A DNA stretch of 60,657 nt, filler included, from Nemertoderma westbladi (lineage: Eukaryota > Animalia > Xenacoelomorpha), in assembly GCA_032718475.1 (NCBI GenBank). It is 3 parts of 3 records of this genome, joined end to end, with 100 filler letters (N's around TTAATTAATTAA, not from the genome) between each part and the next. Parts side by side here need not be neighbours in the genome. Positions count along the whole stretch, not along the records: positions 20,219 to 47,990 come from JAUCBJ010004715.1; 2 more parts are not named here. One strand, written 5' to 3'. Shown one piece after another: positions 21,436 through 52,916 of this stretch. Below the pieces are notes generated by a model, which did no database searches, had not been told where the DNA came from, and saw only the letters and a program-made list of their open reading frames with translations. Both the position numbers and the translations under genes were made by a program. The first letter of the stretch is position 1. Each line of letters begins with the position of its first letter.

Positions 21436-21498
21436 GAGTAGGTGGATCCTCGCAAGCCAGTTCGCATTGAAATTCTGGATGTTGATTCCATTTTCCGC
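21403..21498 (-). CDS. Sushi gene exon 3 (GKWNQHPEFQCELACEDPPTPPTHGLVLGAS)
   Basis: ttaacag| acceptor, cag|gtaagg donor, phase 1-1; completes Sushi 1 (W..C) and starts Sushi 2 (C..PP...HG). Confidence 0.85.
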
Positions 21499-23920: not shown

Positions 23921-24100
23921 CTGTAGTGCACTGGACAATGATTGCATTTTGACTAGCAGTTGAAACATATCCGTCCAGACAAGCATAGACTAACTTCTCC
24001 CCGATGGCATAGATGTTGGAATGCTTTGCGATAACAGATAGTATATGGGCTCTCGGGTGTGGTAGAGCTGGGGGATCTGTGCAATATTCATCACACTTTC
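23921..24100 (-). CDS. Sushi gene exon 2 (KCDEYCTDPPALPH...YAIGEKLVYACLDGY...VQCTT)
   Basis: Sushi/CCP pattern C..PP, Y..G....Y.C..GY, C; aatttag| and CAG|gttaga; 180 nt, phase 1-1. Confidence 0.88.
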
Positions 24101-24140
24101 CTAAATTAATAACAAATTAAAATAATCGTATTAATTATAT

Positions 24141-24625
24141 GGCCCATGTGAAGAATACCAGACTTTCTGCCGTTATATTTCACTTTGCAGTTACCCCCAT
24201 GTGAAGAATACCAGACTTTCTGCCGTTATATTTCACTTTGCAGTTACCCCCATGTGAAGAATACCAGACTTTCTGCCGTTATATTTCACTTTGCAGTTAC
24301 CCCCATGTGAAGAATACCAGACTTTCTGCCGTTATATTTCACTTTGCAGTTACCCCCATGTGAAGAATACCAGACTTTCTGCCGTTATATTTCACTTTGC
24401 AGTTACCCCCATGTGAAGAATACCAGGTTTTCACCAAAACCACAGGTTACAGAAGGGCTGAATCTAACCAAAACAATAAACGAATTGTACAGGTTATAAG
24501 ACAGAAATAAGCGCTATAAAACACTAATATACACACAATTAAAAAAAAAATAAAAAATCTTCATATATAAAATTCCAATAAAAAGTCGACCGAAAAGTGA
24601 AATCCTGGTATTCTTCACATGGGCG
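24141..24625. mobile_element. Non-autonomous TIR element with 8-bp TSD (Merlin-like) and tandemly amplified 56-bp left end
   Basis: ggcccatgtgaagaatacca ... tggtattcttcacatgggcg; aattatat at 24133-24140 and 24626-24633. Confidence 0.85.
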
Positions 24626-24729
24626 AATTATATCCATCGCTATTTTGTTAACAATTTTATGTACCATGCACTCAACTCAAATATTAAATGCATAACAAAA
24701 AATCGTACCCATATCACAGTATGTCTTGT

Positions 24730-24926
24730 AGGAGTGTGTCACTGAACTTACACCGTATCCTGGAATATGGTGTCTTTATTCAAGTACCTGTCCACCCCCC
24801 CCCCCCCCCCCCCCCCCCATTTGTCGACATTGCGCCATTGCAAAGCTGGCCCTGCAAGGATTCCAAGAAATTTATCACAATATGAATTTCGTTGAAAATT
24901 ACCTGAGATATGAGCGTTCAAATGTT
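24730..24926 (+). mobile_element. Fragment related to the 8267-9179 foldback family
   Basis: aaagctgg..tgaatttcgttgaaaa..ctgagatatgagcgttc.aatgttgc matches 8537-8621. Confidence 0.65.
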
Positions 24927-25503
24927 GCTACTTGTAGGACTCTGGCCCAACTAACTTACCCATGGCACAGAGGGCTACTTGTAGGACTCTGGCCCAACTA
25001 ACTTACCCATGGCACAGAGGGCTACTTGTAGGACTCTGGCCCAACTAACTTACCCATGGCACAGAGGGCTACTTGTAGGACTCTGGCCCAACTAACTTAC
25101 TCATGGCACAGAGGGCTACTTGTAGGACTCTGGCCCAACTAACTTACCCATGGCACAGAGGGCTACTTGTAGGACTCTGGCCCAACTAACTTACCCATGG
25201 CACAGAGGGCTACTTGTAGGACTCTGGCCCAACTAACTTACCCATGGCACAGAGGGCTACTTGTAGGACTCTGGCCCAACTAACTTACTCATGGCACAGA
25301 GGGCTACTTGTAGGACTCTGGCCCAACTAACTTACCCATGGCACAGAGGGCTACTTGTAGGACTCTGGCCCAACTAACTTACCCATGGCACAGAGGGCTA
25401 CTTGTAGGACTCTGGCCCAACTAACTTACCCATGGCACAGAGGGCTACTTGTAGGACTCTGGCCCATCTAACTTACCCATGGCACAGAGGGCTACTTGTA
25501 GGA
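24927..25503. repeat. 47-bp tandem array, about 12 copies, of Sushi exon 1 end plus donor
   Basis: Unit reverse complement ccctctgtgccatgg|gtaagttagttgggccagagtcctacaagtag. Confidence 0.97.
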
Positions 25504-25864
25504 GTGTATCGGCTGAATTATATATGGTATCATCACTCCGTTTATTTTTGTTTTCACTTCTGACCTTCTCTTTATTTTCGTCTTTATATATTGCCAGTAT
25601 TGAATTTAACTTTTCACTTGTGTCTCTAGACCGCCTGGTTTGATTTTTATATATTTCCAAGACTGAGTTTAATTTTTGTCTGATGTTCTTATCATAAAGT
25701 TTTACGTCTTTACTTGTGACGCCCATTGGGTTGGTTTTTTCCCCTGTTTCTATTTTGACATCCTTCGCATTCTCCGATGTATCAGCTAGTTCACTGTCGC
25801 TATGAATAGCTTGTGTTGCCTCTATTGTTACCAAAATCGTTAGAATTATAGTAATCGTATCCAT
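25477..25864 (-). CDS. Sushi gene first coding exon: signal peptide plus pro-region
   Basis: MDTITIILTILVTIEATQA hydrophobic leader, RRSR and KR sites; ends ATGG|gtaagt in phase 1, joining exon 2 as CAM-G-KCDEYC. Confidence 0.82.
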
Positions 25865-25983
25865 TATTATTGAAATAGTCTTGAAATTGTTATTGAACAA
25901 TGTTATTATGAATTTTGGATTTAATTATAATATATAATTCGATAATATTTTACTGTTGTTATAGAAATAATTGGTAGTGATTT

Positions 25984-26643
25984 TTATTTCTATATTTTAT
26001 TCTTCCACGTGTCCACACATAACTAACATAGTGCTTTGGTTGGCCCATATTATTTCTATGTTTTATTCTTCCACGTGTCCACACATAACTAACATAGTGT
26101 CTTTGGTTGGCCCATATTATTTCTATGTTTTATTCTTCCACGTGTCCACACATAACTAACATAGTGCTTTGGTTGACCCATATTATTTCTATGTTTTATT
26201 CTTCCACGTGTCCGCTAACTAACACAGTGTGCTTTGGTTGGCCCATATTATTTCTATGTTTTATTCTTCCACGTGTCCACACATAACTAACATAGTGCTT
26301 TGGTTGACCCATATTATTTCTATGTTTTATTCTTCCACGTGTCCACACATAACTAACATAGTGCTTTGGTTGACCCATATTATTTCTATGTTTTATTCTT
26401 CCACGTGTCCACACATAACTAACACAGTGTGCTTTGGTTGACCCATATTATTTCTATGTTTTATTCTTCCACGTGTCCACACATAACTAACATAGTGCTT
26501 TGGTTGACCCATATTATTTCTATGTTTTATTCTTCCACGTGTCCACACATAACTAACATAGTGCTTTGGTTGACCCATATTATTTCTATGTTTTATTCTT
26601 CCACGTGTCCACACATAACTAACATAGTGCTTTGGTTGGCCCA
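25984..26643. repeat. ~66-bp tandem array, about 10 copies
   Basis: Unit ttttattcttccacgtgtccacacataactaacatagtgctttggttgacccatattatttctatg; reverse complement contains ctat|gttagt. Confidence 0.95.
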
Positions 26644-28622: not shown

Positions 28623-29747
28623 CTAAATGTTATCGCTCTCATCCAATACCGACGGGTTAGACATCCTCAAGGCATCTTTATTCCTCGTTAAGGTGTCATC
28701 TTTAGATGCTGCGGTGATGCTCATATGTCTGGTCAATGTACCAAACACCTTCTTTGCAGCCCCTTTCTTCTTCTTTTCAACTTCTCCTTCTACTGTCAGC
28801 GATCCCATCATGGAATCCACCGTTTTCTCCAACTCTTTGCTTCTCGGGTTGTATGCCACCTTGTGGTATTCGTTATTCAACCCCATATCGTTATCTATGA
28901 TCTCCTTTAAGTTATTCAGCAGTGTCACTGTATTAGTATCAACTTCTGCTTCTTGTATAACTATGTCTATGTTATTGAGAACAAATTTGCTATCATCCAC
29001 AGCTTTTTTCAAGTGGGTCTCCATTCCTTTAATGCGTTCATCGTACATCTGCTGTTTGTTATCAAAGAAAGCTCTCAAATCTTCGAGAATATGTTCTTTC
29101 TTAGCCCGTAGAGCCATAACTCCTTCGTTGTATTCTTGTTCAATAAGGTAACATAGACTTTCTACAATCTTCGTTTTTTCTTCTTCATTCTCAGCCCTGA
29201 ATTCTTTGACATCTCTTGTCAGACATTGCAAGGTCTCTAGACAGCGCTCCATATTGTTGGCGCATTCTCCCATACGAACAACCATCTTTAACTTATTGTG
29301 TTCTTTGTGGTTGGCCTCCACCAAACAATCACTACACAAAGCCATCTTACACGGAACACATATATACTTTAGCTGCTCATCTTTGTGGACGGGGCATCTT
29401 TCGTGAGCCTTCTCGCTGGTGGTGACCGCTACTGGAGTCTGGGAAGAGTTGCTAATCGGGCGGGAATTGTTGAGGCGATTGGAATCGATGGACCTGTTGA
29501 ATGCGGAACTCAGTGAGTCGTTGATGTCGTGGTCTGGTAGTTCGTCCAATAGGGATGCGATTGTGTTGCTGTTACATATCCTACAAGTCAGTTCGCAGTG
29601 GGTCTTGGATTCCGGGTTGTTTTGTGTGTCTCGCAGACAAGACTTACAGAATATGTGTCCGCAATCGAGAATCTTTGGGTGACGATAGACTTCTTGACAA
29701 ACTCTACATGTCAACTCTTGTATTAAGTCGCCTTTGCCTTTATCCAT
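28623..29747 (-). CDS. TRIM/RBCC E3 ubiquitin ligase (RING, B-box2, coiled coil, no C-terminal domain), intronless
   Basis: CRVC..CGHIFCKSC..CRIC RING; CPVHKDEQLKYICVPCKMALCSDC..HKEH B-box; helical C-terminal half. Confidence 0.93.
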   Translation of the reverse strand: MDKGKGDLIQELTCRVCQEVYRHPKILDCGHIFCKSCLRDTQNNPESKTHCELTCRICNSNTIASLLDELPDHDINDSLSSAFNRSIDSNRLNNSRPISNSSQTPVAVTTSEKAHERCPVHKDEQLKYICVPCKMALCSDCLVEANHKEHNKLKMVVRMGECANNMERCLETLQCLTRDVKEFRAENEEEKTKIVESLCYLIEQEYNEGVMALRAKKEHILEDLRAFFDNKQQMYDERIKGMETHLKKAVDDSKFVLNNIDIVIQEAEVDTNTVTLLNNLKEIIDNDMGLNNEYHKVAYNPRSKELEKTVDSMMGSLTVEGEVEKKKKGAAKKVFGTLTRHMSITAASKDDTLTRNKDALRMSNPSVLDESDNI

Positions 29748-31337: not shown

Positions 31338-31559
31338 GGAAGCGGTTGACTCGGCGTATCTTTACAGCAACCTAACGGCTATCCTTGATGACCTATTGGA
31401 AGGGTTTGAATCCAAGTCACCCGGAATTAAGTTGGAAACAATTCATTTCGTTAAGCGGTGCCTCCAGCGGGCAACACCGGCATCGCTAAAGAAGGACATA
31501 CTGAAACCGTTAGGGGGCGCTCTAACAAAACGCTTAGGTGAACAGCTACCAGAAATTCG
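31338..31559 (+). CDS. CKAP5: ch-TOG/XMAP215 internal exon (TOG2 HEAT repeats)
   Basis: EAVDSAY..KSPGIKLET..LKKDILKPLGGAL..QLPEIR resembles recalled CKAP5 EAIDAIF..KNPTIKQQT..LPKSLLKPF..SAPEVR; ctacag| and CG|gtgagt. Confidence 0.9.
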
Positions 31560-31677
31560 GTGAGTTTGGAAGAACAGCAACCTGAAATTTTGTAAGTTTG
31601 GAAGAACAGTAACCAGAAATAAAAATATAGTAAGATCTGATTGAGAGTGATTTGGTTATGTCGTCATTGTTTTTTAG

Positions 31678-32426: not shown

Positions 32427-32547
32427 CCAGACGCGCTTAGTAAACCGACGACTGGTGGTCCCGCCGCCGCTCCGCCTTGGAAGAAGAAATCGACAGTCCA
32501 GGGAGGTAAACCGACGGCTGGTAGTGGAGGGCAGGAAGGCAAAAAAG
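32427..32547 (+). CDS. CKAP5: ch-TOG internal exon (basic TOG2-TOG3 linker)
   Basis: cctcag|PDALSKPTTGGPAAAPPWKKK..GQEGKK G|gtgagt; phase 0-1 links the flanking exons. Confidence 0.82.
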
Positions 32548-35500
32548 GTGAGTGAGAGATCGGTAGTGGAGGGAGGTAAACCAACGGCTGGTAGTGGAGG
32601 GCAGGAAGGCAAAAAAGGTGAGTGAGAGATCGGTAGTGGAGGGCAGGAAGGCAAAAAAGGTGAGTGAGAGATCGGTAGTGGAGGGAGGTAAACCAACGGC
32701 TGGTAGTGGAGGACAGGAAGGCAAAAAAGGTGAGTGAGAGATCGGTAGTGGAGGGCAGGAAGGCAAAAAAGGTGAGTGAGAGATCGGTAGTGGAGGGGGG
32801 TAAACCAACGGCTGATAGTGGAGGGCAGGGAGGCAAAAAAGGTGAGTGAGAGATCGGTAGTGGAGGACAGGAAGGCAAAAAAGGTGAGTGAGAGATCGGT
32901 AGTGGAGGGAGGTAAACCAACGGCTGATAGTGGAGGGCAGGGAGGCAAAAAAGGTGAGTGAGAGATCGGTAGTGGAGGGCAGGAAGGCAAAAAAGGTGAG
33001 TGAGAGATCGGTAGTGGAGGGCAGGAAGGCAAAAAATGTGAGTGAGAGATCGGTAGTGGAGGGCAGGAAGGCAAAAAAGGTGAGTGAGAGATCGGTAGTG
33101 GAGGGCAGGAAGGCAAAAAAAGGTGAGTGAGAGATCGGTAGTGGAGGGGGGTAAACCAACGGCTGATAGTGGAGGGCAGGAAGGCAAAAAAGGTGAGTGA
33201 GAGATCGGTAGTGGAGGACAGGAAGGCCAAAAAGGTGAGTGAGAGATCGGTAGTGGAGGGAGGTAAACCAACGGCTGGTAGTGGAGGGCAGGAAGGCAAA
33301 AAAGGTGAGTGAGAGATCGGTAGTGGAGGGCTGGAAGGCAAAAAAGGTGAGTGAGAAATCGGTAGTGGAGGGCAGGAAGGCAAAAAAGGTGAGTGAGAGA
33401 TCGGTAGTGGAGGGAGGTAAACCAACGGCTGGTAGTGGAGGGCAGGAAGGCAAAAAAGGTGAGTGAGAGATCGGAAGTGGAGGGAGGTAAACCAACGGCT
33501 GGTAGTGGAGGGCAGGAAGGCAAAAAAGGTGAGTGAGAGATCGGTAGTGGAGGGAGGTTAACCAACGGCTGGTAGTGGAGGGCAGGAAGGCAAAAAAGGT
33601 GAGTGAGAGATCGGTAGTGGAGGGCAGGAAGGCAAAAAAGGTGAGTGAGAGATCGGTAGTGGAGGGAGGTAAACCAACGGCTGGTAGTGGAGGACAGGAA
33701 GGCAAAAAAGGTGAGTGAGAGATCGGTAGTGGAGGGCAGGAAGGCAAAAAAGGTGAGTGAGAGATCGGTAGTGGAGGGGGGTAAACCAACGGCTGATAGT
33801 GGAGGGCAGGGAGGCAAAAAAGGTGAGTGAGAGATCGGTAGTGGAGGGCAGGAAGGCAAAAAAGGTGAGTGAGAGATCGGTAGTGGAGGGCAGGAAGGCA
33901 AAAAAGGTGAGTGAGAGATCGGTAGTGGAGGGCAGGAAGGCAAAAAAGGTGAGTGAGAGATCGGTAGTGGAGGGCAGGAAGGCAAAAAAGGTGAGTGAGA
34001 GATCGGTAGTGGAGGGGGGTAAACCAACGGCTGATAGTGGAGGGCAGGAAGGCAAAAAAGGTGAGTGAGAGATCGGTAGTGGAGGACAGGAAGGCCAAAA
34101 AGGTGAGTGAGAGATCGGTAGTGGAGGGAGGTAAACCAACGGCTGGTAGTGGAGGGCAGGAAGGCAAAAAATGTGAGTGAGAGATCGGTAGTGGAGGGCT
34201 GGAAGGCAAAAAAGGTGAGTGAGAAATCGGTAGTGGAGGGCAGGAAGGCAAAAAAGGTGAGTGAGAGATCGGTAGTGGAGGGAGGTAAACCAACGGCTGG
34301 TAGTGGAGGGCAGGAAGGCAAAAAAGGTGAGTGAGAGATCGGTAGTGGAGGGCAGGAAGGCAAAAAAGGTGAGTGAGAGATCGGTAGTGGAGGGCAGGAA
34401 GGCAACAAAGGTGAGTGAGAGATCGGTAGTGGAGGTTAGGAAGGCCAAAAAAGGTGAGTGAGAGATCGGTAGTGGAGGGCAGGAAGGAAAAAGGTGAGTG
34501 AGAGATCGGTAGTGGAGGGCAGGAAGGCAACAAAGGTGAGTGAGAGATCGGTAGTGGAGGTTAGGAAGGGCAAAAAAGGTGAGTGAGAGATCGGTAGTGG
34601 AGGGCAGGAAGGCAAAAAAGGTGAGTGAGAGATCGGTAGTGGAGGGCAGGAAGGCAAAAAAAGGTGAGTGAGAGATCGGTAGTGGAGGGCAGGAAGGCAA
34701 AAAAGGTGAGTGAGAGATCGGTAGTGGAGGGCAGGAAGGCAAAAAAGGTGAGTGAGAGATCGGTAGTGGAGGGAGGTAAACCAACGGTTGGTAGTGGAGG
34801 GCAGGAAGGCAAAAAAGGTGAGTGAGAGATCGGTAGTGGAGGACAGGAAGGCAAAAAAGGTGAGTGAGAGATCGGTAGTGGAGGGAGGTAAACCAACGGC
34901 TGGTAGTGGAGGGCAGGAAGGCAAAAAAGGTGAGTGAGAGATCGGTAGTGGAGGACAGGAAGGCAAAAAAGGTGAGTGAGAGATCGGTAGTGGAGGGAGG
35001 TAAACCAACGGCTGGTAGTGGAGGACAGGAAGGCCAAAAAGGTGAGTGAGAGATCGGTATAGTGGAGGGAGGTAAACCAACGGCTGGTAGTGGAGGGCAG
35101 GAAGGCAAAAAAGGTGAGTGAGAGATCGGTAGTGGAGGGCAGGAAGGCAACAAAGGTGAGTGAGAGATCGGTAGTGGAGGGCAGGAAGGCAAAAAAGGTG
35201 AGTGAGAGATCGGTAGTGGAGGGCAGGAAGGCAACAAAGGTGAGTGAGAGATCGGTAGTGGAGGGCAGGAAGGCAAAAAAGGTGAGTGAGAGATCGGTAG
35301 TGGAGGGCAGGAAGGCAACAAAGGTGAGTGAGAGATCGGTAGTGGAGGGCAGGAAGGCAAAAAAAGGTGAGTGAGAGATCGGTAGTGGAGGGAGGTAAAC
35401 CAACGGCTGGTAGTGGAGGGCTGGAAGGCAAAAAAGGTGAGTGAGAGATCGGTAGTGGAGGGCAGGAAGGCAAAAAAGGTGAGTGAGAGATCGGTAGTGG

Positions 35501-38500
35501 AGGGCAGGAAGGCAAAAAATGTGAGTGAGAGATCGGTAGTGGAGGGAGGTAAACCAACGGCTGGTAGTGGAGGGCAGGAAGGCAAAAAAGGTGAGTGAGA
35601 GATCGGAAGTGGAGGGCAGGAAGGCAAAAAAGGTGAGTGAGAGATCGGTAGTGGAGGAAGGTAAACCAACGGCTGGTAGTGGAGGGCAGGAAGGCAAAAA
35701 AGGTGAGTGAGAGATCGGTAGTGGGGGGCAGGAAGGCAAAAAAGGTGAGTGAGAGATCGGTAGTGGAGGGCAGGAAGGCAAAAAAGGTGAGTGAGAGATC
35801 GGTAGTGGGGGGCAGGAAGGCAAAAAAGGTGAGTGAGAGATCGGTAGTGGAGGAAGGTAAACCAACGGCTGGTAGTGGAGGGCAGGAAGGCAAAAAAGGT
35901 GAGTGAGCGATCGGTAGTGGAGGAAGGTAAACCAACGGCTGGTAGTGGGGGGCAGGAAGGCAAAAAAGGTGAGTGAGAGATCGGTAGTGGAGGGCAGGAA
36001 GGCAAAAAAGGTGAGTGAGAGATCGGTAGTGGGGGGCAGGAAGGCAAAAAAGGTGAGTGAGAGATCGGTAGTGGAGGGAGGTAAACCAACGGCTGGTAGT
36101 GGAGGGCAGGAAGGCAAAAAAGGTGAGTGAGAGATCGGTAGTGGGGGGCAGGAAGGCAAAAAAGGTGAGTGAGAGATCGGTAGTGGGGGGCAGGAAGGCA
36201 AAAAAGGTGAGTGAGAGATCGGTAGTGGAGGGCAGGAAGGCAAAAAAGGTGAGTGAGAGATCGGTAGTGGGGGGCAGGAAGGCAAAAAAGGTGAGTGAGA
36301 GATCGGTAGTGGAGGGAGGTAAACCAACGGCTGGTAGTGGAGGGCAGGAAGGCAAAAAAGGTGAGTGAGAGATCGGTAGTGGGGGGCAGGAAGGCAAAAA
36401 AGGTGAGTGAGAGATCGGTAGTGGAGGGCAGGAAGGCAAAAAAGGTGAGTGAGAGATCGGTAGTGGAGGGAGGTAAACCAACGGCTGGTAGTGGAGGCCA
36501 GGAAGGCAAAAAAGGTGAGTGAGAGATCGGTAGTGGAGGGAGGTAAACCAACGGCTGGTAGTGGCGGGCAGGAAGGCAAAAAAGGTGAGTGAGAGATCGG
36601 TAGTGGAGGGAGGTAAACCAACGGCTGGTAGTGGAGGGCTGGAAGGCAAAAAAGGTGAGTGAGAGATCGGTAGTGGAGGGAGGTAAACCAACGGCTGGTA
36701 GTGGAGGGCTGGAAGGCAAAAAAGGTGAGTGAGAGATCGGTAGTGGAGGGCAGGAAGGCAAAAAAGGTGAGTGAGAGATCGGTAGTGGAGGGAGGTAAAC
36801 CAACGGCTGGTAGTGGAGGGCTGGAAGGCAAAAAAGGTGAGTGAGAGATCGGTAGTGGAGGGCAGGAAGGCAAAAAAGGTGAGTGAGAGATCGGTAGTGG
36901 AGGGCAGGAAGGCAAAAAAGGTGAGTGAGAGATCGGTAGTGGAGGGAGGTAAACCAACGGCTGGTAGTGGAGGCCAGGAAGGCAAAAAAGGTGAGTGAGA
37001 GATCGGTAGTGGAGGGAGGTAAACCAACGGCTGGTAGTGGAGGGCTGGAAGGCAAAAAAGGTGAGTGAGAGATCGGTAGTGGAGGGCAGGAAGGCAAAAA
37101 AGGTGAGTGAGAGATCGGTAGTGGAGGGCAGGAAGGCAAAAAAGGTGAGTGAGAGATCGGTAGTGGAGGGCAGGAAGGCAAAAAAGGTGAGTGAGAGATC
37201 GGTAGTGGAGGGAGGTAAACCAACGGCTGGTAGTGGAGGGCAGGAAGGCCTAAAAGGTGAGTGACAGATCGGTAGTGGAGGGCAGGAAGGCAAAAAAGGT
37301 GAGTGAGAGATCAGTAGTGGAGGGCAGGAAGGCAAAAAAGGTGAGTGAGAGATCGGTAGTGGAGGGAGGTAAACCAACGGCTGGTAGTGGAGGGCAGGAA
37401 GGCCAAAAAGGTGAGTGACAGATCGGTAGTGGAGGGCAGGAAGGCAAAAAAGGTGAGTGAGAGATCAGTAGTGGAGGGCAGGAAGGCAAAAAAAGTGAGT
37501 GAGAGATCGGTAGTAGAGGGAGGTAAACCAACGGCTGGTAGTGGCGGGCAGGAAGGCAAAAAAGGTGAGTGAGAGATCGGTAGTGGAGGGCAGGAAGGCA
37601 AAAAAGGTGAGTGAGAGATCGGTAGTGGATGGAGGTAAACCAACGGCTGGTAGTGGAGGGCTGGAATGCAAAAAAGGTGAGTGAGAGATCGGTAGTGGAG
37701 GGCAGGAAGGCAAAAAAAGTGAGTGAGAGATCGGTAGTAGAGGGAGGTAAACCAACGGCTGGTAGTGGAGGGCTGGAAGGCAAAAAAGGTGAGTGAGAGA
37801 TCGGTAGTGGAGGGCAGGAAGGCAAAAAAGGTGAGTGAGAGATCGGTAGTGGAGGGAGGTAAACCAACGGCTGGTAGTGGAGGGCAGGAAGGCAAAAAAG
37901 GTGAGTGAGAGATCGGTAGTGGAGGGCAGGAAGGCAAAAAAGGTGAGTGAGAGATCGGTAGTGGATGGAGGTAAACCAACGGCTGGTAGTGGAGGGCTGG
38001 AATGCAAAAAAGGTGAGTGAGAGATCGGTAGTGGAGGACAGGAAGGCAACAAAGGTGAGTGAGAGATCGGTAGTGGAGGGCAGGAAGGCAAAAAGGTGAG
38101 TGAGAGATCGGTAGTGGAGGGCAGGAAGGCAAAAAAGGTGAGTGAGAGATCGGTAGTGGAGGGAGGTAAACCAACGGCTGGTAGTGGAGGGCAGGAAGGC
38201 AAAAAAGGTGAGTGAGAGATCGGTAGTGGAGGGCAGGAAGGCAAAAAAGGTGAGTGAGAGATCGGTAGTGGAGGGAGGTAAACCAACGGCTGGTAGTGGA
38301 GGGCTGGAAGGCAAAAAAGGTGAGTGAGAGATCAGTAGTGGAGGGCAGGAAGGCAAAAAAAGTGAGTGAGAGATCGGTAGTAGAGGGAGGTAAACCAACG
38401 GCTGGTAGTGGAGGGCTGGAAGGCAAAAAAGGTGAGTGAGAGATCGGTAGTGGAGGGCAGGAAGGCAAAAAAGGTGAGTGAGAGATCGGTAGTGGAGGGA

Positions 38501-39642
38501 GGTAAACCAACGGCTGGTAGTGGAGGGCAGGAAGGCAAAAAAGGTGAGTGAGAGATCGGTAGTGGAGGGCAGGAAGGCAACAAAGGTGAGTGAGAGATCG
38601 GTAGTGGAGGGAGGTAAACCAACGGCTGGTAGTGGAGGGCTGGAAGGCAAAAAAGGTGAGTGAGAGATCAGTAGTGGAGGGCAGGAAGGCAAAAAAGGTG
38701 AGTGAGAGATCGGTAGTGGAGGGCAGGAAGGCAAAAAAGGTGAGTGAGAGATCGGTAGTGGAGGGAGGTAAACCAACGGCTGGTAGTGGAGGGCTGGAAG
38801 GCAAAAAAGGTGAGTGAGAGATCAGTAGTGGAGGGCAGGAAGGCAAAAAAAGTGAGTGAGAGATCGGTAGTAGAGGGAGGTAAACCAACGGCTGGTAGTG
38901 GAGGGCTGGAAGGCAAAAAAGGTGAGTGAGAGATCGGTAGTGGAGGGCAGGAAGGCAAAAAAGGTGAGTGAGAGATCGGTAGTGGAGGGAGGTAAACCAA
39001 CGGCTGGTAGTGGAGGGCAGGAAGGCAAAAAAGGTGAGTGAGAGATCGGTAGTGGAGGGCAGGAAGGCAAAAAAGGTGAGTGAGAGATCGGTAGTGGATG
39101 GAGGTAAACCAACGGCTGGTAGTGGAGGGCTGGAATGCAAAAAAGGTGAGTGAGAGATCGGTAGTGGAGGACAGGAAGGCAACAAAGGTGAGTGAGAGAT
39201 CGGTAGTGGAGGGCAGGAAGGCAAAAAGGTGAGTGAGAGATCGGTAGTGGAGGGCAGGAAGGCAAAAAAGGTGAGTGAGAGATCGGTAGTGGAGGGAGGT
39301 AAACCAACGGCTGGTAGTGGAGGGCAGGAAGGCAAAAAAGGTGAGTGAGAGATCGGTAGTGGAGGGCAGGAAGGCAAAAAAGGTGAGTGAGAGATCGGTA
39401 GTGGAGGGAGGTAAACCAACGGCTGGTAGTGGAGGGCTGGAAGGCAAAAAAGGTGAGTGAGAGATCGGTAGTGGGGGGGCAGGAAGGCAAAAAAGGTGAG
39501 TGAGAGATCGGTAGTGGGGGGCAGGAAGGCAAAAAAGGTGAGTGAGAGATCGGTAGTGGAGGGCAGGAAGGCAAAAAAGGTGAGTGAGAGATCGGTAGTG
39601 GAGGGCAGGAAGGCAAAAAGGTGAGTGAGAGATCGGTAGTGG
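32500..39642. repeat. 7.1-kb array of 42-bp and 28-bp units derived from the ch-TOG exon end plus donor
   Basis: Units ggtagtggagggcaggaaggcaaaaaag|gtgagtgagagatc and ggtagtggagggaggtaaaccaacggct. Confidence 0.98.
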
Positions 39643-39743: not shown

Positions 39744-39925
39744 TTAAAGATAAGAAAGTTTCTAAGCCGAAAGAGACGAAACAACCAGTGGGGCCGCCAT
39801 CCGAGAGACAACTTGCATACGAGGAAGCGGTTGAGATCGTCAAGGAAACCTTGGGGGAGAAAACAATGGGCCAATTAGAGAACGCCACGTGGAAGGAAAG
39901 ATTGGAGGCGACAGAGTTCATACAG
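39744..39925 (+). CDS. CKAP5: ch-TOG internal exon (start of TOG3)
   Basis: LENATWKERLEA matches the TOG first-HEAT WKERL motif; ttttag| and CAG|gttgtt; phase 1-0. Confidence 0.9.
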
Positions 39926-40037
39926 GTTGTTAGATGTTCTAGAATGATAAAAATTCAAATAACCCTAGTTTATTTGGTCCAATCTAAATAACTCATGTTT
40001 TACTTTATCTTATTGTTTAACTGCTTTATTCTTCTAG

Positions 40038-40251
40038 AATTACATCTCATCGGCTGAACCCAACTCTGTTCCAATGCAAGCCGTACTGCTGGCCATGGCA
40101 GGAAAGAAATCCGATTGGAGAGAAAATAACTTCCAGGTCTTAATGGCTAAATTCAAGATCGTCGCCCAATTGGCTACCCATTGTAAGGTAACCATTCAAT
40201 CAGCTGAAGTCGCCATGTCTGGATTGGTTGACAAACTCGGTGACGCCAAAG
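40038..40251 (+). CDS. CKAP5: ch-TOG internal exon (TOG3)
   Basis: KKSDWRENNFQV..K..IV, GLVDKLGDAK; ttctag| and AAAG|gttcgt. Confidence 0.92.
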
Positions 40252-41924
40252 GTTCGTCTGTAACATCATTGAAATTCCGACCCACACAACTCCGAACCAA
40301 AACAATCATAAGGAATCAACAACCAAAATGACTTTTGCAGGGGAAATATATTTATAAATACAATTTAGGATCAATGAAACTTGGGGGGGGGGGTCTTACT
40401 CTGCAAACATAATGTAAAACTAAAACACGTAAATAAACCGCACGAAAAATGTTCAATGTATAATCGTGAACTCGTCAGGGCCTGGGCCCAACAACACCAC
40501 CCCACCACCTCTCCAAATACACTCTCACACCTATAAACTACCTCTTATATATTTAACCTAACCAAACCAAATAAACTAAATGATACCATTATTGTAAACT
40601 TTTAACTACAACCTATATTTATTAGAAAAGTATGACATTTGTCAGCCGCATAAAGGGAAGTACTAGTTAGCGGAAGAAAAATAATCAATTTATAAAAAAA
40701 ATCTGGGTGTGTCTCGATAGCCTGAGACCAGTACGCGCTAATCTCTGGCTATATTTCATCAGCTGGACTGGAAATTAGCCAAGAATATGATTAGAAAACT
40801 TTTCTAGAATCCTGGAGTCGTAAGTTGTCTGTCTGTACAGGCCAACCTCATTACTTTCGTTACCGGTACTCAATATATGCGGAGAAGTTAACAAATTTAC
40901 TCTATAAAATTATTTTAGTTAGATTTAGTTGGAGATTAATAATGATATCTTATTATAATTTCATATCATTTGTTAAACACAAGTTACTGTCAATCAATAA
41001 TCCGTAAATTTAATTAGTTTTAAATGATTTCTTGTGGCTCTAAATCACATTAAATCGTCATTATTTGTAGGTTGAGATTATTAAACCTGTAAGCGATTCA
41101 TTGTTTCTGACTGATGGTGATGTCGAATTATGCGGGGCGATTCATGTATATGACGGAGCCTCTTAAAAATGCAATAATCACTACACAATTATTCCCTTTT
41201 TCCCCTTCTCCCACCGTAATATTTCTCTCTAAATATATCCAATATCCCGATGTATTTCCACCCCAGACATCCTTAGCCGGCCTCACCCACAATATCTAAC
41301 CAATATTGCCGGCTACTCCCCCATGAATCATTCCAATCCAATAAAGGAGGCAACCACACAACCTCCTTCCTTTCTCTCATTGGCCCTCAACACGCCAACC
41401 TCACCTAACTATCACCCTCACCCAGTTACCCAGTTGTTAGCAAAGGAATAATTGGTCACCTTCAAAACTCTATTGTCTTTCCTTAATAATTGATTATTGG
41501 TCAGTCAATCATACAATGTGTTAATCATATTTTACATGGGTTGAACGTAAAATCTCTGCACTAGAAAGACAAACTCTGTTTAGGTGATAATTAGGGGTCA
41601 ACTTCATATCGACCCGACACCGGGTTTAAAAAGGGCCGTATTTGGGTTGAGAAGTGAGTCCCAACAACCAGCCTAACAGTACGCCGCCTCGGCAGCTAAA
41701 CTGGATTCTGCTCCAAGTTAGAGGGCGTCTTTGTTCCTGGGCCGTGCCCTAATAAGGCTTCGCGGTCGCTAGGAGCTTAAGACGATTCCGCCTAAGGACT
41801 GAGCTTCACTGGCTACTTAGTTCGTCCCAGGACCAACTATTTAGTTTTGGGGGCAAAGTAGCAGTGTCCCTATAGGCTTAGACTCTGTCAGTTACGGTAG
41901 TGCTTGTGCACTTTGTAACTCTGT

Positions 41925-44900
41925 GTGGTATGATCGATCTCTGTGTTCTTCTATTTATAGGCGTCCCCTGCCCAATCTGCACTCACTGCTCTAGAGGTAT
42001 GATCGATCTCTGTGTTCTTCCATTTATAGGCGCCCCCGGCCCAATCAGCACTCACTGCTCTAGAGATATGATCGATCTCTGTGTTCTTCCATTTATAGGC
42101 GTCCCCCGGCCCAATATGCACTCACTGCTCTAGAGGTATGATCGATCTCTGTGTTCTTCCATTTATAGGCGCCCCCCTGCCCAATCTGCACTCACTGCTC
42201 TAGAGGTATGATCGATCTCTGTGTTCTTCCATTTATAGGCGTCCCCCTGCCCAATCGGCACTCACTGCTCTAGAGGTATGATCGATCTCTGTGTTCTTCC
42301 ATTTATAGGCGTCCCCCGGCCCAATATGCACTCACTGCTCTAGAGGTATGATAGATCTCTGTGATCTTCCATTTATAGGCGTCCCCCGGCCCAATCTGCA
42401 CTCATTGCCCTAGAGATATGATCGATCTCTGTGTTCTTCCATTTATAGGCGCCCCCCTGCCCAATCTGCACTCACTGCCCTAGGTATGATCGATCTGTGT
42501 TCTTCCATTTATAGGTGGCCCCCCGGCCCAATATGCACTCACTGCTCTAGAGGTATGATCGATCTCTGTGTTCTTCCATTTATAGGCGTCCCCCGGCCCA
42601 ATCTGCACTCACTGCCCTAGGTATGATCGATCTGTGTTCTTCCATTTATAGGCGTCCCCCGGCCCAATCTGCACTCATTGCCCTAGAGATATGATCGATC
42701 TCTGTGTTCTTCCAATTATAGGCGCCCCCCTGCCCAATCTGCACTCACTGCCCTAGGTATGATCGATCTGTGTTCTTCCATTTATAGGTGGCCCCCCGGC
42801 CCAATATGCACTCACTGCTCTAGAGGTATGATCGATCTCTGTGATCTTCCATTTATAGGCGTCCCCCTGCCCAATCTGCACTCACTGCCCTAGGTATGAT
42901 CGATCTCTGTGTTCTTCCATTTATAGGCGCCCCCCTGCCCAATCTGCACTCACTGCTCTAGAGGTATGATCGATCTGTGTTCTTCCATTTATAGGTGGCC
43001 CCCCGGCCCAATATGCACTCACTGCTCTAGAGGTATGATAGATCTCTGTGATCTTCCATTTATAGGCGTCCCCTACCCAATCGGCACTCACTGCTCTAGA
43101 GATATGATCGATCTCTGTGTTCTTCCATTTATAGGCGCCCCCCTGCCCAATCTGCACTCACTGCCCTAGGTATGATCGATCTCTGTGTTCTTCCATTTAT
43201 AGGCGTCCCCCTGCCCAATCTGCACTCACTGCTCTAGAGGTATGATCGATCTCTGTGTTCTTCCATTTATAGGCGCCCCCCTGCCCAATCTGCACTCACT
43301 GCCCTAGGTATGATCGATCTGTGTTCTTCCATTTATAGGTGGCCCCCCGGCCCAATATGCACTCACTGCTCTAGAGGTATGATAGATCTCTGTGATCTTC
43401 CATTTATAGGCGTCCCCCGGCCCAATCTGCACTCACTGCTCTAGAGGTATGATAGATCTCTGTGTTCTTCCATTTATAGGCGCCCCCCTGGCCAATCTGC
43501 ACTCACTGCTCTAGAGGTATGATCGATCTCTGTGATCTTCCATTTATAGGCGCCCCCCTGCCCAATCTGCACTCACTGCTCTAGAGGTATGATAGATCTC
43601 TGTGATCTTCCATTTATAGGCGTCCCCTACCCAATCGGCACTCACTGCTCTAGAGGTATGATCGATCTCTGTGTTCTTCCATTTATAGGCGCCCCCGGCA
43701 CAATCTGCACTCACTGCTCTAGAGGTATGATCGATCTCTGTGTTCTTCCATTTATAGGCGTCCCCCTGCCCAATCTGCACTCACTGCCCTAGGTATGATC
43801 GATCTGTGTTCTTCCATTTATAGGCGCCCCTCTGCCCAATCTGCACTCACTGCTCTAGAGGTATGATCGATCTCTGTGTTCTTCCATTTATAGGCGCCCC
43901 CCTGCCCAATCTGCACTCACTGCTCTAGAGGTATGATCGATCTCTGTGTTCTTCCATTTATAGGCGCCCCCCTGCCCAATCTGCACTCACTGCTCTAGAG
44001 GTATGATCGATCTCTGTGTTCTTCCATTTATAGGCGCCCCCCTGCCCAATCGGCACTCACTGCTCTAGAGGTATGATCGATCTCTGTGTTCTTCCATTTA
44101 TAGGCGCCCCCGGCACAATCTGCACTCACTGCTCTAGAGGTATGATCGATCTCTGTGTTCTTCCATTTATAGGCGTCCCCCTGCCCAATCTGCACTCACT
44201 GCCCTAGGTATGATCGATCTGTGTTCTTCCATTTATAGGCGCCCCTCTGCCCAATCTGCACTCACTGCTCTAGAGGTATGATCGATCTCTGTGTTCTTCC
44301 ATTTATAGGCGCCCCCCTGCCCAATCTGCACTCACTGCTCTAGAGGTATGATCGATCTCTGTGTTCTTCCATTTATAGGCGCCCCCCTGCCCAATCTGCA
44401 CTCACTGCTCTAGAGGTATGATCGATCTCTGTGTTCTTCCATTTATAGGCGCCCCCCTGCCCAATCTGCACTCACTGCTCTAGAGGTATGATCGATCTCT
44501 GTGTTCTTCCATTTATAGGCGCCCCCCTGCCCAATCTGCACTCACTGCTCTAGAGGTATGATCGATCTCTGTGTTCTTCCATTTATAGGCGCCCCCCTGC
44601 CCAATCTGCACTCACTGCTCTAGAGGTATGATCGATCTCTGTGTTCTTCCATTTATAGGCGCCCCCCTGCCCAATCTGCACTCACTGCTCTAGAGGTATG
44701 ATCGATCTCTGTGATCTTCCATTTATAGGCGCCCCCCTGCCCAATCTGCACTTACTGCTCTAGAGGTATGATCGATCTCTGTGTTCTTCCATTTATAGGC
44801 GTCCCCCTGCCCAATCTGCACTCACTGCTCTAGAGGTATGATCGATCTCTGTGATCTTCCATTTATAGGCGCCCCCCTGCCCAATCTGCACTCACTGCTC

Positions 44901-47900
44901 TAGAGGTATGATCGATCTCTGTGATCTTCCATTTATAGGCGCCCCCCTGCCCAATCTGCACTCACTGCTCTAGAGGTATGATCGATCTCTGTGTTCTTCC
45001 ATTTATAGGCGTCCCCTACCCAATCTGCACTCACTGCTCTAGAGGTATGATCGATCTCTGTGATCTTCCATTTATAGGCGCCCCCCTGCCCAATCTGCAC
45101 TCACTGCTCTAGAGGTATGATCGATCTCTGTGTTCTTCCATTTATAGGCGTCCCCTACCCAATCTGCACTCACTGCTCTAGAGGTATGATCGATCTCTGT
45201 GTTCTTCCATTTATAGGCGTCCCCTACCCAATCTGCACTCACTGCTCTAGAGGTATGATCGATCTCTGTGTTCTTCCATTTATAGGCGTCCCCTACCCAA
45301 TCTGCACTCACTGCTCTAGAGGTATGATCGATCTCTGTGTTCTTCCATTTATAGGCGTCCCCTACCCAATCTGCACTCACTGCTCTAGAGGTATGATCGA
45401 TCTCTGTGTTCTTCCATTTATAGGCGTCCCCTACCCAATCTGCACTCACTGCTCTAGAGGTATGATCGATCTCTGTGTTCTTCCATTTATAGGCGTCCCC
45501 TACCCAATCTGCACTCACTGCTCTAGAGGTATGATCGATCTCTGTGTTCTTCCATTTATAGGCGTCCCCTACCCAATCTGCACTCACTGCTCTAGAGGTA
45601 TGATCGATCTCTGTGATCTTCCATTTATAGGCGCCCCTCTGCCCAATCTGCACTCACTGCTCTAGAGGTATGATCGATCTCTGTGATCTTCCATTTATAG
45701 GCGCCCCTCTGCCCAATCTGCACTCACTGCTCTAGAGGTATGATAGATCTCTGTGTTCTTCCATTTTTAGGCGTCCCCCTGCCCAATCTGCACTCACTGC
45801 TCTAGAGGTATGATCGATCTCTGTGATCTTCCATTTATAGGCGCCCCCCTGCCCAATCTGCACTCACTGCTCTAGAGGTATGATCGATCTCTCTGTTCTT
45901 CCATTTATAAGCGTCCCCCTGCCCAATCTGCACTCACTGCTCTAGGTATGATCGATCTGTGTTCTTCCATTTATAGGTGGCCCCCCGGCCCAATATGCAC
46001 TCACTGCTCTAGAGGTATGATAGATCTCTGTGATCTTCCATTTATAGGCGTCCCCTACCCAATCGGCACTCACTGCTCTAGAGGTATGATCGATCTCTGT
46101 GTTCTTCCATTTATAGGCGTCCCCCGGCCCAATATGCACTCACTGCTCTAGAGGTATGATCGATCTCTGTGTTCTTCCATTTATAGGCGCCCCCCTGCCC
46201 AATCTGCACTCACTGCTCTAGAGGTATGATCGATCTCTGTGTTCTTCCATTTATAGGCGTCCCCCTGCCCAATCTGCACTCACTGCTCTAGAGGTATGAT
46301 CGATCTCTGTGTTCTTCCATTTATAGGCGCCCCCCTGCCCAATCTGCACTCACTGCTCTAGAGGTATGATCGATCTCTGTGTTCTTCCATTTATAGGCGT
46401 CCCCCGGCCCAATATGCACTCGCTGCTCTAGAGGTATGATAGATCTCTGTGTTCTTCCATTTATAGGCGTCCCCCTGGCCAATCTGCACTCACTGCTCTA
46501 GAGGTATGATCGATCTCTGTGTTCTTCCATTTATAGGCGACCCCTGCCCAATCTGCACTCACTGCCCTAGGTATGATCGATCTCTGTGTTCTTCCATTTA
46601 TAGGTGGCCCCCGGCCCAATCTGCACTCACTGCTCTAGAGGTATGATCGATCTCTGTGTTCTTCCATTTATAGGCGTCCCCCGGCCCAATCTGCACTTAC
46701 TGCCCTAGGTATGATCGATCTGTGTTCTTCCATTTATAGGTGGCCCCCCGGCCCAATCTGCACTCACTGCTCTAGAGGTATGATAGATCTCTGTGATCTT
46801 CCATTTATAGGCGTCCCCCGGCCCAATCTGCACTCACTGCTCTAGAGGTATGATCGATCTCTGTGTTCTTCCATTTATAGGCGCCCCCCTGCCCAATCTG
46901 CACTCACTGCTCTAGAGGTATGATCGATCTCTGTGTTCTTCCATTTATAGGCGTCCCCCGGCCCAATATGCACTCACTGCTCTAGAGGTATGATAGATCT
47001 CTGTGATCTTCCATTTATAGGCGTCCCCCGGCCCAATATGCACTCACTGCTCTAGAGGTATGATAGATCTCTGTGATCTTCCATTTATAGGCGCCCCCCT
47101 GCCCAATCTGCACTCACTGCTCTAGAGGTATGATCGATCTCTGTGTTCTTCCATTTATAGGCGTCCCCCGGCCCAATATGCACTCACTGCTCTAGAGGTA
47201 TGATAGATCTCTGTGATCTTCCATTTATAGGCGTCCCCCGGCCCAATATGCACTCACTGCTCTAGAGGTATGATAGATCTCTGTGATCTTCCATTTATAG
47301 GCGTCCCCTGCCCAATCTGCACTCACTGCTCTAGAGGTATGATCGATCTCTGTGATCTTCCATTTATAGGCGCCCCCTGCCCAATCTGCACTCACTGCTC
47401 TAGAGGTATGATCACTGCTCTAGAGGTATGATCGATCTCTGTGTTCTTCCATTTATAGGCGTCCCCGGCCCAATCTGCACTCACTGCTCTAGAGGTATGA
47501 TCGATCTCTGTGTTCTTCCATTTATAAGCGTCCCCCTGCCCAATCTGCACTCACTGCTCTAGAGGTATGATCGATCTCTGTGATCTTCCATTTATAGGCG
47601 CCCCCTGCCCAATCTGCACTCACTGCTCTAGAGGTATGATCACTGCTCCTAGAGGTATGATCGATCTCTGTGATCTTCCATTTATAGGCGCCCCCCCTGC
47701 CCAATCTGCACTCACTGCTCTAGAGGTATGATCGATCTCTGTGTTCTTCCATTTATAGGCGCCCCCGGCACAATCTGCACTCACTGCTCTAGAGGTATGA
47801 TAGATCTCTGTGTTCTTCCATTTATAGGCGCCCCCGGCACAATCTGCACTCACTGCTCTAGAGGTATGATCGATCTCTGTGTTCTTCCATTTATAAACGT

Positions 47901-47990
47901 CCCCCGGCCCAATCTGCACTCACTGCTCTAGAGGTATGATAGATCTCTGTGTTCCCATTTATAGGTGGCCCCCCTGCCCAATCAGCACTC
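41925..47990. repeat. ~60-bp array, about 100 copies, derived from the acceptor plus 5' end of the next ch-TOG exon
   Basis: Unit tgttcttccatttatag|gcgcccccctgcccaatctgcactcactgctctagaggtatgatcgatctctg. Confidence 0.97.
47965..47990 (+). CDS. CKAP5: Probable start of the next ch-TOG exon, truncated by the gap
   Basis: tttatag|GT GGC CCC CCT GCC CAA TCA GCA CTC gives DAK-GGPPAQSAL(TAL), in register with recalled CKAP5 DVKCGNNAKEAMTAI; phase 1 fits. Confidence 0.65.
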
Positions 47991-48090
47991 NNNNNNNNNN
48001 NNNNNNNNNNNNNNNNNNNNNNNNNNNNNNNNNNTTAATTAATTAANNNNNNNNNNNNNNNNNNNNNNNNNNNNNNNNNNNNNNNNNNNN
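47991..48090. other. Scaffold gap with TTAATTAATTAA linker
   Basis: N runs with an artificial spacer. Confidence 0.98.
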
Positions 48091-49439: not shown

Positions 49440-49945
49440 CGAAGTGGGGACTTCGCGCAGCACGAAGTTGGCAGAGCCTTAGCGAATTGACACTGTTAGG
49501 GGGTAGGTCAATTTATGCAAATAGTCACGTTGGCCCTCTAGCGGCAGACTGGAGAACTGCAGATGGATTCGCCTCCTTTGAAAGTCACAGCTAATGGTCT
49601 AATACATATCTGCCAAGTTTCAGCTTAAACGGATTAAAAGCAAAGAAATGGGAGGGCATTTAATGTTTAGACATGTGGCCCTCTAGCGGGAGACCATTGC
49701 ACTGATGGTGTCTGAAAGTCTCTCAAAAATCTAAACTTTTGCTCATATTGATACCTACAAATTTTCAACTTGGCAGCTTTAAATCCGACAAAGTTATTAG
49801 CATGTCAAAATCGTAACGACGACGACGACGACGACGACAACGACGACGACGACGACAACGACGACGACAACTATTTGCATAAATTGACCCACCCCCTAAC
49901 AGTGTCAATTCGCTAAGGCTCCGCCAACTTCGTGGCTCGCCCCAC
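49440..49945 (+). mobile_element. Second copy of the (GAC)n element, inserted in the LINE
   Basis: 49530-49945 is nearly identical to 48661-49250; its left end has an inverted copy of the terminal motif. Confidence 0.8.
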
Positions 49946-50777
49946 AGGGGACTTCACACCTGCCGAACTCCAAAGAAGCATTAAAAGCATGTCCAATAAT
50001 AACGCGAGTGGATTAGATGAAATCCCAGCGGCGGTATAATGTGCTAAATGGACCATTATTGAATGTTTGCAAACGGATGTTAAAAGGGGAAAAGCCACCA
50101 CCAATTTGGACTAAAGGTCAACTAAAGCCTCTCCTCAAGAAAGGAGACCTCGGCATACCAACAAACTATCGTGGGATCTGTCTGCTTGTGGTAGCTGCCA
50201 AAATATACAATAAAATGATTCTACTGTATATAGGATTAGGCCTCACATAGAGAAACTTCTGCGTAAGAGCCAAAACGGATTTCGACCAAGAAGATCAACA
50301 ATAGCTCAGATACTTGCACTACGGAGACTGATTGAAGGAATTAAATCAAAGAATCTCCCCGCAGTCATGACTTTTGTGGACTTCAAGAAGGCATTCGACT
50401 CCATCCATAGAGGTAAAATGCTTGAAATCCTAAGAGCTTATGGAATACCAGAAGTAATTGTTGGTGGCATTGGATTGTTATATTGTGACACAGAAGCGCA
50501 GGTACTCTCACCAGATGGTGAATCTGAGTTTTTCTCAATCCTGGCTAGCGTACTGCAAGGTGACACATTAGCACCATTACTATTTGTAATTGTGCTGGAT
50601 TACGCAATGAGGACGGCCACAAAGGGTGAAAATCTGGGATTCACACTTCAAGAACGCAGAAGTAGTAGATATCCGGCAACTACAGTCACAGACACCGACT
50701 TTGCGGATGACAACGCCCTGCTCTCTAATACGCTACAGCATCGCTACAGCTACGCTACTGCACAGCTTCTACTAAAC

Positions 50778-52400
50778 TAGAGAGCCAGCAAGCTGGCTGG
50801 AAGGAGCCCGGGGGGAAGAATCCTAGCCAATACTAAACTAAACAATTATCTAAATGGTGTGATGATACATAGCTGACTTTGTGGCTTGCCCCACATAATA
50901 AAAAATGAAACTTTGCTGCCACTAACAACCGAATATTTATAAGAAAATGCCCATGATTCACAACCAGATAAATAACAAGTTAGATTTACCAGTACAGGTA
51001 CGGTTACCTTTCTTTTTGAAAACCATTAGATTTAACAATTAATAGAAGTCTAGGTCGCGGCGAAAAATAATAACGCAAATTAAACAACCATACAATCGGC
51101 CTACACACTTTTTTATTATTCGAAATAAATTCGCTAACAGAAAATATCTAAACTAATTTATTTATTTACTAATTAATCTAAACGAGAAGGTGAACAATTG
51201 TTTCTACACAATTAATTATGACGACTTTTATGGGATATGTAATATTTACTGTTCAATAATAATTTACAATCTCCCATTCCAACACATTCCCAGAGAGTAA
51301 TAATATCATCAATATATACAAACTAAGTGGATTATAATTCGATTTCTTCAGCCAAGTCCGATAGCTATTTTTCTGAAATTTATATTGCTAATTTAATTAT
51401 TTGGCATATTCTGTTTGTGGCGCGGACTATAATAATAATAACATTGTTGACATACAGTCTTTGAACCTTTCAGTCTTTCTCAGCAGTACTTTGTGGCTCG
51501 TCCCACATAATAAAAACTGAAACTTTGCTATGACAACACACCCGGTTCTTTTAAATTTGCGTGATTTGATTTATGCTCGCACCACTATTTGTAAGAAATA
51601 TTAAAACTTATCTTACAGTATGCCAATGTAGTAATGGTATTAAAATATAATTAAATTAATTTACACTATTAATGCTTCAGCTAAAAAATCGTTTCAGCTA
51701 AAAAATCGTATGTAATAAAAAAAATAAGAATATTTTTAATATGTGTATATGTAATATAGGTATTACTGCTAAGTTAGGCAGTAGGCCAGAGCGGGCTCCT
51801 TAAATACATGCAACTACTGTATTATAGTGTAGGTCAACTATAAAACATTTTGCAATCCACAGTGAGTATCGACTGCAATAGGACACAACACACTGCTTTG
51901 TGTAACTAAAATTCATTCTCCTGATCCACCCCCTAACATAGCAGAGTGAGTAACCTTATTGTAGATATACCCTTAGGAAGCACTGGGAGAGCAATCAGCT
52001 TATGGGGTAATACATTAGAAACCAACAGCTTATGTGTGAGTAAACATTGACTTTCCTTATAGCCTACTAGTAAAACTTGGCAACCAATACGTTTTACTAT
52101 GACTGTGTATAACATATTAAGCCATATTTCATCATGAACACCAGCTGTTATTTTACCATTGCTTTTAATTTCGCGACAAAACAATGTCAAAAAACTAAAT
52201 ATATCGAATACCACACATAGAATCGATCTGAAATTTTGTAACGCGATTATGAACCTCAAAAGCAATGTACTTGCAAAATTTCATCAAAATCGCCAGGCAG
52301 GAAGTGCCTTAACCTAGATAATTATCAGTCAGTCAGTGTCAGTCAATGTAATGTATCCTGAAGATTCTTACAGTAAGTATCCCGCTGTCAAGCGGGCTCC
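50778..52400. mobile_element. ~1.6-kb insertion interrupting the LINE
   Basis: LINE sequence cttctactaaa|taaagtggag is contiguous at 6401-6422 but split here; ends in hairpin cccgctgtcaagcggg. Confidence 0.65.
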
Positions 52401-52916
52401 TAATAAAGTGGAGAGGGCTGCTAAGGAGGTTGGATTGCATATAAAGGCTACCAAGACCGAATTCATGACCTTTAATGTTGATGGAAACTTGACAACCATT
52501 GATAATAATCAACTAAGGAAGGTCGATGACTTCCAGTACCTTGGATCATGGATAGAGAGTAGCAAAACGGACATAGAAGTTAGGAAAGCAAAGGCTTGGG
52601 TAGCTCTATCAAAAATGGATACCATCTGGAAATCAGATCTCTCCAGGCACCTGAAGACTAAGTTCTTTCGAGCCACAGTGGAAAGTGTATTTTTATACGG
52701 GGGTGAGAGCTGGACACTGACTAAATCACTTGAACAACGAATTGATGGTTGCTACACAAGACTACTAAGGGCAGCCCTAAACATCAGCTGGAGACAACAC
52801 ATGACAAACGCCGAGCTTTATGCTACAATACCACCTGTATCAACCACCCTCCGTGAACGCAGATTAAGATTCAGTGGGCACTGCTGGCGAAGTAAAGACG
52901 AGGTCATACCAGATCT

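Follow-up and report, generated by a model that had tools for sequence, protein, structure and literature searches.

The gene identified by sequence similarity as ch-TOG/XMAP215 in the xenacoelomorph Nemertoderma westbladi (GenBank assembly GCA_032718475.1) contains, in the intron behind an exon for its TOG3 domain, a head-to-tail array at 41928-47990, the unit of which spans an intron-exon boundary. The stretch of DNA analysed, from here on called the window, comprises 60,657 nt joined end to end from three parts of three records of this genome (positions 20,219 to 47,990 come from JAUCBJ010004715.1), and all positions are counted along it. Contigs from four (X1, X2, X4 and X5) of six listed sequencing runs, none of which is on record as RNA, were aligned to the window. 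The locus is made up of the following features:

40038-40251, plus strand: ch-TOG exon (TOG3) ending ...DKLGDAK plus one base, phase 1 (phmmer; joint in X4; end of fit of X4 and X5 at 40253)
40252-47964, plus strand: 7713-nt intron, GT...AG, containing the array (spliced contig)
41163-41916, no strand: dispersed repeat(s) of that intron (contigs pile up far more deeply than on the flanks; those of X1 and X2 have loose ends at 41163 and 41916)
41928-47933, plus strand: 86 upstream unit copies, each a 31-33 nt intron end plus a 34-38 nt exon-like part (unit splitting; tandem joint in X1 and X2)
47406 and 47634, plus strand: two stubs of 20-21 nt (unit splitting)
47934-47964, plus strand: true intron end and 3' splice site, belonging to the last copy, whose donor-like GT is 31 nt upstream of the AG (unit splitting; X5 and X2 contigs)
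47965-47990, plus strand: start (26 nt) of the true next exon, which reads GGPPAQSAL with the upstream base and is cut by the join (X5 and X2 contigs)
47991-48090, no strand: run of 44 N, a 12-nt linker with stops in all frames, TTAATTAATTAA, and 44 N (sequence; twin at 20119-20218)

The exon 40038-40251 matches TOG3 of Drosophila Mini spindles (4Y5J, phmmer E 1.5e-4); for the exon at 31678 the match is to chain 2QK2_A (molecule LP04448p, E 7.3e-5), which we take to be TOG2 of Mini spindles; by these similarities the host gene is ch-TOG/XMAP215. Taken alone, the TOG3 exon retrieved no Pfam family, and none of the 39 candidates found by a protein search with it was a ch-TOG relative. For the exon 39746-39925 there was no meaningful match in the PDB, and Rfam gave none within 40252-47990. 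The high-copy dispersed repeat(s) at 41163-41916 stop 11 nt short of the first array unit. The N runs at 47991-48090 and 20119-20218 are most likely artificial joins. Since both share the linker and adjoin array ends, order and distance across them are unreliable; a 14-nt piece of the exon's continuation, searched with up to 2 mismatches, is absent from the window.

Tandem Repeats Finder reports for 41927-47990 a period of 70 nt with 93% matches. Splitting the array at every GTATGAT or ATATGAT yields 89 pieces, of which 87 are acceptor-bearing units and two are the stubs, so that the array of an initial annotation, which had spoken of about 100 acceptor copies, is real and its count too high. 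In each unit, part of the next exon stands between an acceptor-like ...TTTATAG and a donor-like GTATGA. The distance from this GT to the AG of the following TTTATAG is 33 nt in 77 units and 31 nt in 10, in place of the spacing of about 23 nt given earlier. The exon-like part of the 86 upstream copies measures 34, 35, 36, 37 or 38 nt (n = 1, 10, 21, 47 and 7, respectively); these length classes cover all three frames, 21 of the 86 being frame-keeping. The AG is intact in 84 of the 87 units, the GT in 85 of the 89 pieces, and both are intact in 79 of the 86 upstream copies. The word AGGTATGA occurs 84 times in the window, every time within the array, where shuffles predict 2.4 occurrences.

Unit variants are arranged as ordered blocks along the array, with runs of identical neighbours of 6 units at 44276-44626 and 7 units at 45115-45529. 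The last copy is unique, the others being 2-6 edits off over 26 nt, and the first has CTGTGTG before its donor-like site where others have CTAGAG. Seven internal copies begin with GTGG, as does the true exon. Read by hand, the array consensus differs from the true exon by substitutions at exon nucleotides 2, 20 and 32, all of them synonymous third positions; drift of the exon (or of both) or exchange and gene conversion between exon and array may account for them, and three sites are too few to separate the two.

The array ends at a join that is most likely artificial, and no contig bridges the array, which raises the question whether its copy number has been inflated or scrambled by the assembly and the real array is much shorter. 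The tandem joint, at which a contig "goes back 69", is present in both DNA runs, X1 and X2, together with several unit variants and a depth far above that of the unique flanks (contig depth does not translate into copy number, and the assembly may itself derive from X1). This and the ordered blocks of variants make inflation very unlikely as an explanation; in any case it would alter the size of the array, not its kind.

Which of the 87 acceptors is used can be read from spliced sequence. A contig of X4 passes directly from 39923 to 40036, the GT..AG intron in between being removed, and is, because of this joint, taken as spliced RNA. The 577-nt contig of X5 fits 40194-40253 and then continues with 30 more letters, of which 24 equal 47967-47990 of the window and 6 the start of the continuation found in DNA. 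The first 20 nt of this continuation are present in only one of the 87 copies, the last, from which every other copy differs over 26 nt by at least 2 edits. The junction from 40251 therefore skips all 86 upstream copies, and among the matches listed the one junction with readable letters (1/1) goes to 47965. X4 and X5 are without cover on the first copy and on 47905-47990, which bears neither way.

What follows the join was read from X2, an individual with alleles differing from the window. One contig of this run, 550 nt long, matches 47915-47990 but for 2 differences and runs past the join; the next 30 letters have the same first 6 as X5, contain no GT and, translated by hand, read TALSEALGLP in the frame of GGPPAQSAL. 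With a length of at least 56 nt, the true exon is not a micro-exon. The initial annotation had proposed that each unit is a copy of the acceptor and start of the next ch-TOG exon, the last one before the gap being the real exon start and in frame, and had chosen as its test the start of the next exon in spliced sequence. All this was borne out by the X5 contig, which runs from 40251, the end of the TOG3 exon, into the last copy, and by the continuation TALSEALGLP in X2. Its description of the units as micro-exon-like, of about 37 nt, holds for the pseudo-exons of 34-38 nt with both sites in 79 of the 86 copies; it does not extend to the real exon, which has no donor at that place.

True exon and unit share just the first 34 nt of the exon. 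Since the true exon lacks a donor where the unit has one, GAG/GTATGA (the slash marks the junction) is not that exon's own donor. The AG(AG)GTATGA after the exon-like part of the copies is indeed not exon sequence; in the last copy it lies 31 nt upstream of the true AG. The CTGTGTG before the first copy points to an origin of the donor-like site from the intron side or from the duplication junction. A tandem duplication of a true micro-exon was considered and rejected, the exon being at least 56 nt long with no GT in the 30 letters past the last copy.

Between 15 and 52 nt upstream of the true acceptor, a single word resembles a branch point, CTCAC at -46 (47919-47923, plus strand). It belongs to the exon-derived part of the penultimate copy, and between it and the true AG there are three other AGs. 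Judged by this word, the array may now supply the branch point for the true acceptor.

These findings lead us to propose that the array is very probably a tolerated minisatellite of the "mirage" kind, removed with the intron, and that the last of its 87 copies, to which the one informative spliced contig joins, is the splice site used. The anatomy of the unit, the last copy as exon start in RNA and the exon of normal length behind it are directly observed; how the array arose and why its copies would be silent are conclusions drawn from them. The array would have started with a single, local duplication that took in about 33-36 nt from the end of the intron and 34 nt of the exon, followed by expansion and by block-wise homogenisation through slippage or unequal exchange, from which the terminal, protein-constrained copy would have been left out. 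Exon definition would select the last acceptor, as it alone leads into a complete exon whose own donor lies at a distance, and pseudo-exons of 34-38 nt with spacers of 31-33 nt would be too cramped for U1, U2AF and U2 together. Occasional slips, 60 of the 79 two-sided pseudo-exons giving stop or frameshift products, would mostly be hidden by nonsense-mediated decay (NMD).

The proposal can be compared with what is known of such repeats. In amphioxus, tandem units made up of an intron end and an exon start, most of them keeping AG or GT, were described under the name of mirages; they gave normal products in reverse transcription-PCR and are homogenised inside with the boundary copies excluded, and their origin is called unclear (PMC3087553). 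Examples are Adh3, troponin C, the globins BflGb6 and BflGb9, and PGBD5 (via PMC3087553 and PMC3902484), mirages in PGBD5, Adh and troponin C being reported also in PMC3902484. Five of the six features that define mirages in PMC3087553 are found in the ch-TOG array: a head-to-tail, minisatellite-like duplication (period 70, 87 units, 93% matches); a real boundary within the unit (40251 joined to the last copy, with DNA continuing in frame); a splice signal in many but not all copies (84/87 AG); regular splicing to the exon-adjacent copy (1/1 readable junction, contigs being blind to minor forms); and concerted evolution with the boundary copy excluded (identical runs of 6 and 7, unique last copy). 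The sixth is length instability between haplotypes or cells; in the contigs available the array is collapsed, and none of them spans it. BflGb6 has the same acceptor-side anatomy, with 3-6 copies as against 87 copies over 6 kb in ch-TOG. The ch-TOG units differ from amphioxus mirages, as these are described in the text, by the additional donor-like site, which makes them two-sided pseudo-exons, and, unlike in the amphioxus cases, the gene holds a second array, of 7 kb.

In human genes, variable number tandem repeats (VNTRs) span exon-intron junctions in F7 IVS7 (37 bp x 5-9), IFI6 (6-16), CBS intron 13, LMNB2 and PDGF intron 4 (PMC1557585). These are donor-side repeats, in which splicing uses just the copy next to the exon or the one or two nearest to it, the nearest pseudo-sites being used as well in two cases (PMC1557585). 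Common to them and to the ch-TOG array is a minisatellite that repeats a true splice site; since they repeat a donor, in 5-25 copies, they are closer to the companion array at 32520-39642 (see below) than to the acceptor array. In segmental duplications of primates, internal tandem repeats lying across exon-intron boundaries can be a source of cryptic sites and of new introns (PMC2812944). There, alternative transcripts come from young paralogs, whereas ch-TOG is a conserved housekeeping gene for which no alternative product was seen. The literature searched, in which most subscription papers were not covered, held no paper that deals with an array in ch-TOG or with acceptor arrays made up of two-sided pseudo-exons. 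What stands out against the known kind is size and density, with a further array of 7 kb, on the donor side, in this gene and 5 of 16 mapped splice sites repeated, and it is likely that we are dealing with a large example of a repeat type known from lancelets rather than with a control switch.

Several observations weigh against this interpretation. The donor-like site agrees with the consensus, as given in PMC1557585, at 6 of 9 positions, the same as four of five real ch-TOG donors, and the copies retain their pyrimidine tract. Nor do the sites appear to be hidden: their predicted mean unpaired probability is 0.37 (85 array sites), compared with 0.20-0.73 for the five real donors. Masking of the donor-like site by a hairpin was tried as an explanation and dropped, because the four stretches folded no better than shuffles (z +0.2 to +2.0). 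The intactness of AG and GT would be explained by young age or by homogenisation, and selection would explain it as well. As to the RNA, support comes from one informative contig of a small run; X4 and X5 are labelled "DNA?", their RNA nature following from the spliced joints. A second contig, of X4, likewise fits no further than 40253; it has 243 nt beyond this point, the letters of which lie outside the matches listed. Contigs drop rare variants and NMD targets, so that low-level inclusion would be invisible in them, and the silence of the 79 two-sided pseudo-exons is a deduction.

It is therefore of interest what the copies would yield if they were spliced. Read from the phase of the upstream exon, 7 of the 86 copies are in the exon frame and end with GAG GTA TGA, the reading given for upstream acceptor use in general by the initial annotation; the others stop earlier at a TAG inside the unit (57) or run on for 20-172 residues (22). 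Taken as cassettes, 52 of the 79 two-sided copies bring in a stop, 8 a frameshift, and 19 keep the frame and would insert 12 unrelated residues into TOG3. The copies could thus be leaky poison or decoy micro-exons, of which some transcripts would include one, gain a stop or frameshift and decay, so that the length of the array would tune the dose of ch-TOG. The 79 of 86 copies with an AG and a following GT, a donor-like site that scores like real donors and is not predicted to be hidden, and the use of two pseudo-donors beside the true one in human IFI6 (6-16) and CBS (PMC1557585) would fit such a role. We nevertheless regard it as quite unlikely: the sole junction seen skips every copy; a selected poison system should have purged the 19 frame-keeping copies; arrays of the same kind are present in other genes of the window without any pairing of donor and acceptor; and the amphioxus mirages gave no aberrant mRNA (PMC3087553, PMC3902484).

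The AG directly before the GT is found as GAG/GTATGA (73 times), TAG/GTATGA (11 times) and TAG/GTGGCC (8 times, 7 internal and the true site). Recursive splicing, in which the intron would be removed stepwise with such internal AG/GT junctions as ratchet points, could draw on the 11 units with TAG/GTATGA and the 7 internal TAG/GTGGCC, all with an acceptor-type AG directly before GT, and would leave the mature mRNA normal, as observed. The 11 TAG/GTATGA junctions, however, come after exon-derived sequence and not after the unit's own acceptor tract, the 73 others are GAG/GT, a rarely used type of acceptor, and described recursive sites are found mainly in introns much longer than this one of 7.7 kb. 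All this renders recursive splicing extremely unlikely. A function of the units as decoy or poison micro-exons or as recursive splicing points, which had been suggested from the sequence, has no support; the sole informative junction passes over all upstream copies.

The array is not the only one in the window. Near-copies of each 24-nt junction word were counted within 10 kb for 16 mapped splice sites, and 5 of the 16 turned out to be repeated. In ch-TOG these are 3 of 11, namely donor 31559 (x2), donor 32547 (x136) and acceptor 47965, the other 8 being single (for one of them, the acceptor near 31338, the word counted was shifted by 2 nt); in a predicted Sushi-domain gene on the minus strand they are 2 of 5, both donors (x12 and x15). 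In every array with a mapped exon the intact copy is the exon-adjacent one. These arrays and the neighbouring genes are:

32520-39642, plus strand: companion 7-kb donor array of ch-TOG, two introns before the one with the acceptor array, in which 42/70-nt units repeat the end of exon 32427-32547 and its donor (129 x AG/GTGAGT)
31540-31620, plus strand: decayed 32-nt repeat of the end and donor of another ch-TOG exon, 2.5 copies (repeat finding)
20219-25924, minus strand: predicted secreted Sushi-domain gene (Pfam Sushi, E 2.2e-5), three exons chained by phase 1 alone
24927-25503 and 20219-21446, minus strand: donor arrays of the Sushi gene, a 47-mer x12 and an 80-mer x15, the latter cut by the join (junction-word count)
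15210-20116, minus strand: 41-mer array with 74 x CAG/GTTAGA, candidate donor array, exon unproven, outside the 5/16 count
25984-26643, minus strand: 66-mer array with 9 donor-like words, candidate donor array, exon unproven, outside the 5/16 count
21985-23142, minus strand: intronless open reading frame (ORF) for a CDP-alcohol phosphatidyltransferase (Pfam E 4e-24), located within an intron of the Sushi gene and sharing its strand
28626-29747, minus strand: intronless RING/B-box (TRIM-like) ORF of 374 amino acids, upstream of the first mapped ch-TOG exon

Past the first donor of the companion array, reading meets a TGA after two codons. The CDP-alcohol phosphatidyltransferase ORF, for which 6 distant protein matches of 28-38% identity were found, has an in-frame 39-nt repeat (x4.9) near its start. 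The RING/B-box ORF, for which none of 1744 candidates of a protein search was usable as a relative, may lie inside a ch-TOG intron if earlier exons are located further upstream. Matches in the protein atlas all stayed below 0.9, and no close protein relatives came up. At 5760-6900 and 49940-52900 there are broken stretches that, judged by eye, resemble the reverse transcriptase of retrotransposons without long terminal repeats.

The array offers, on a large scale, a natural test of how a 3' splice site is chosen, in which 83 intact upstream acceptors are passed over for the last one. That they are passed over, most of them with a donor-like site 34-38 nt downstream, argues against a simple choice of the first AG as seen from the upstream exon, and for exon definition. 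The density of arrays in one window of 60 kb suggests a genome-wide bias in where minisatellites arise, the mechanism of which is "unclear" according to PMC3087553. A bolder idea, which we consider a long shot, is that the 79 latent two-sided micro-exons are included at a low, length-dependent rate, 60 of them feeding NMD and setting the dose of ch-TOG and 19 adding 12 residues to TOG3; the minisatellite would then be a tunable splicing rheostat and an exon nursery within an essential spindle gene, amid arrays at about a third of the splice sites. Were inclusion length-dependent in this way, the instability of a repeat would be tied to the dose of a core spindle protein.

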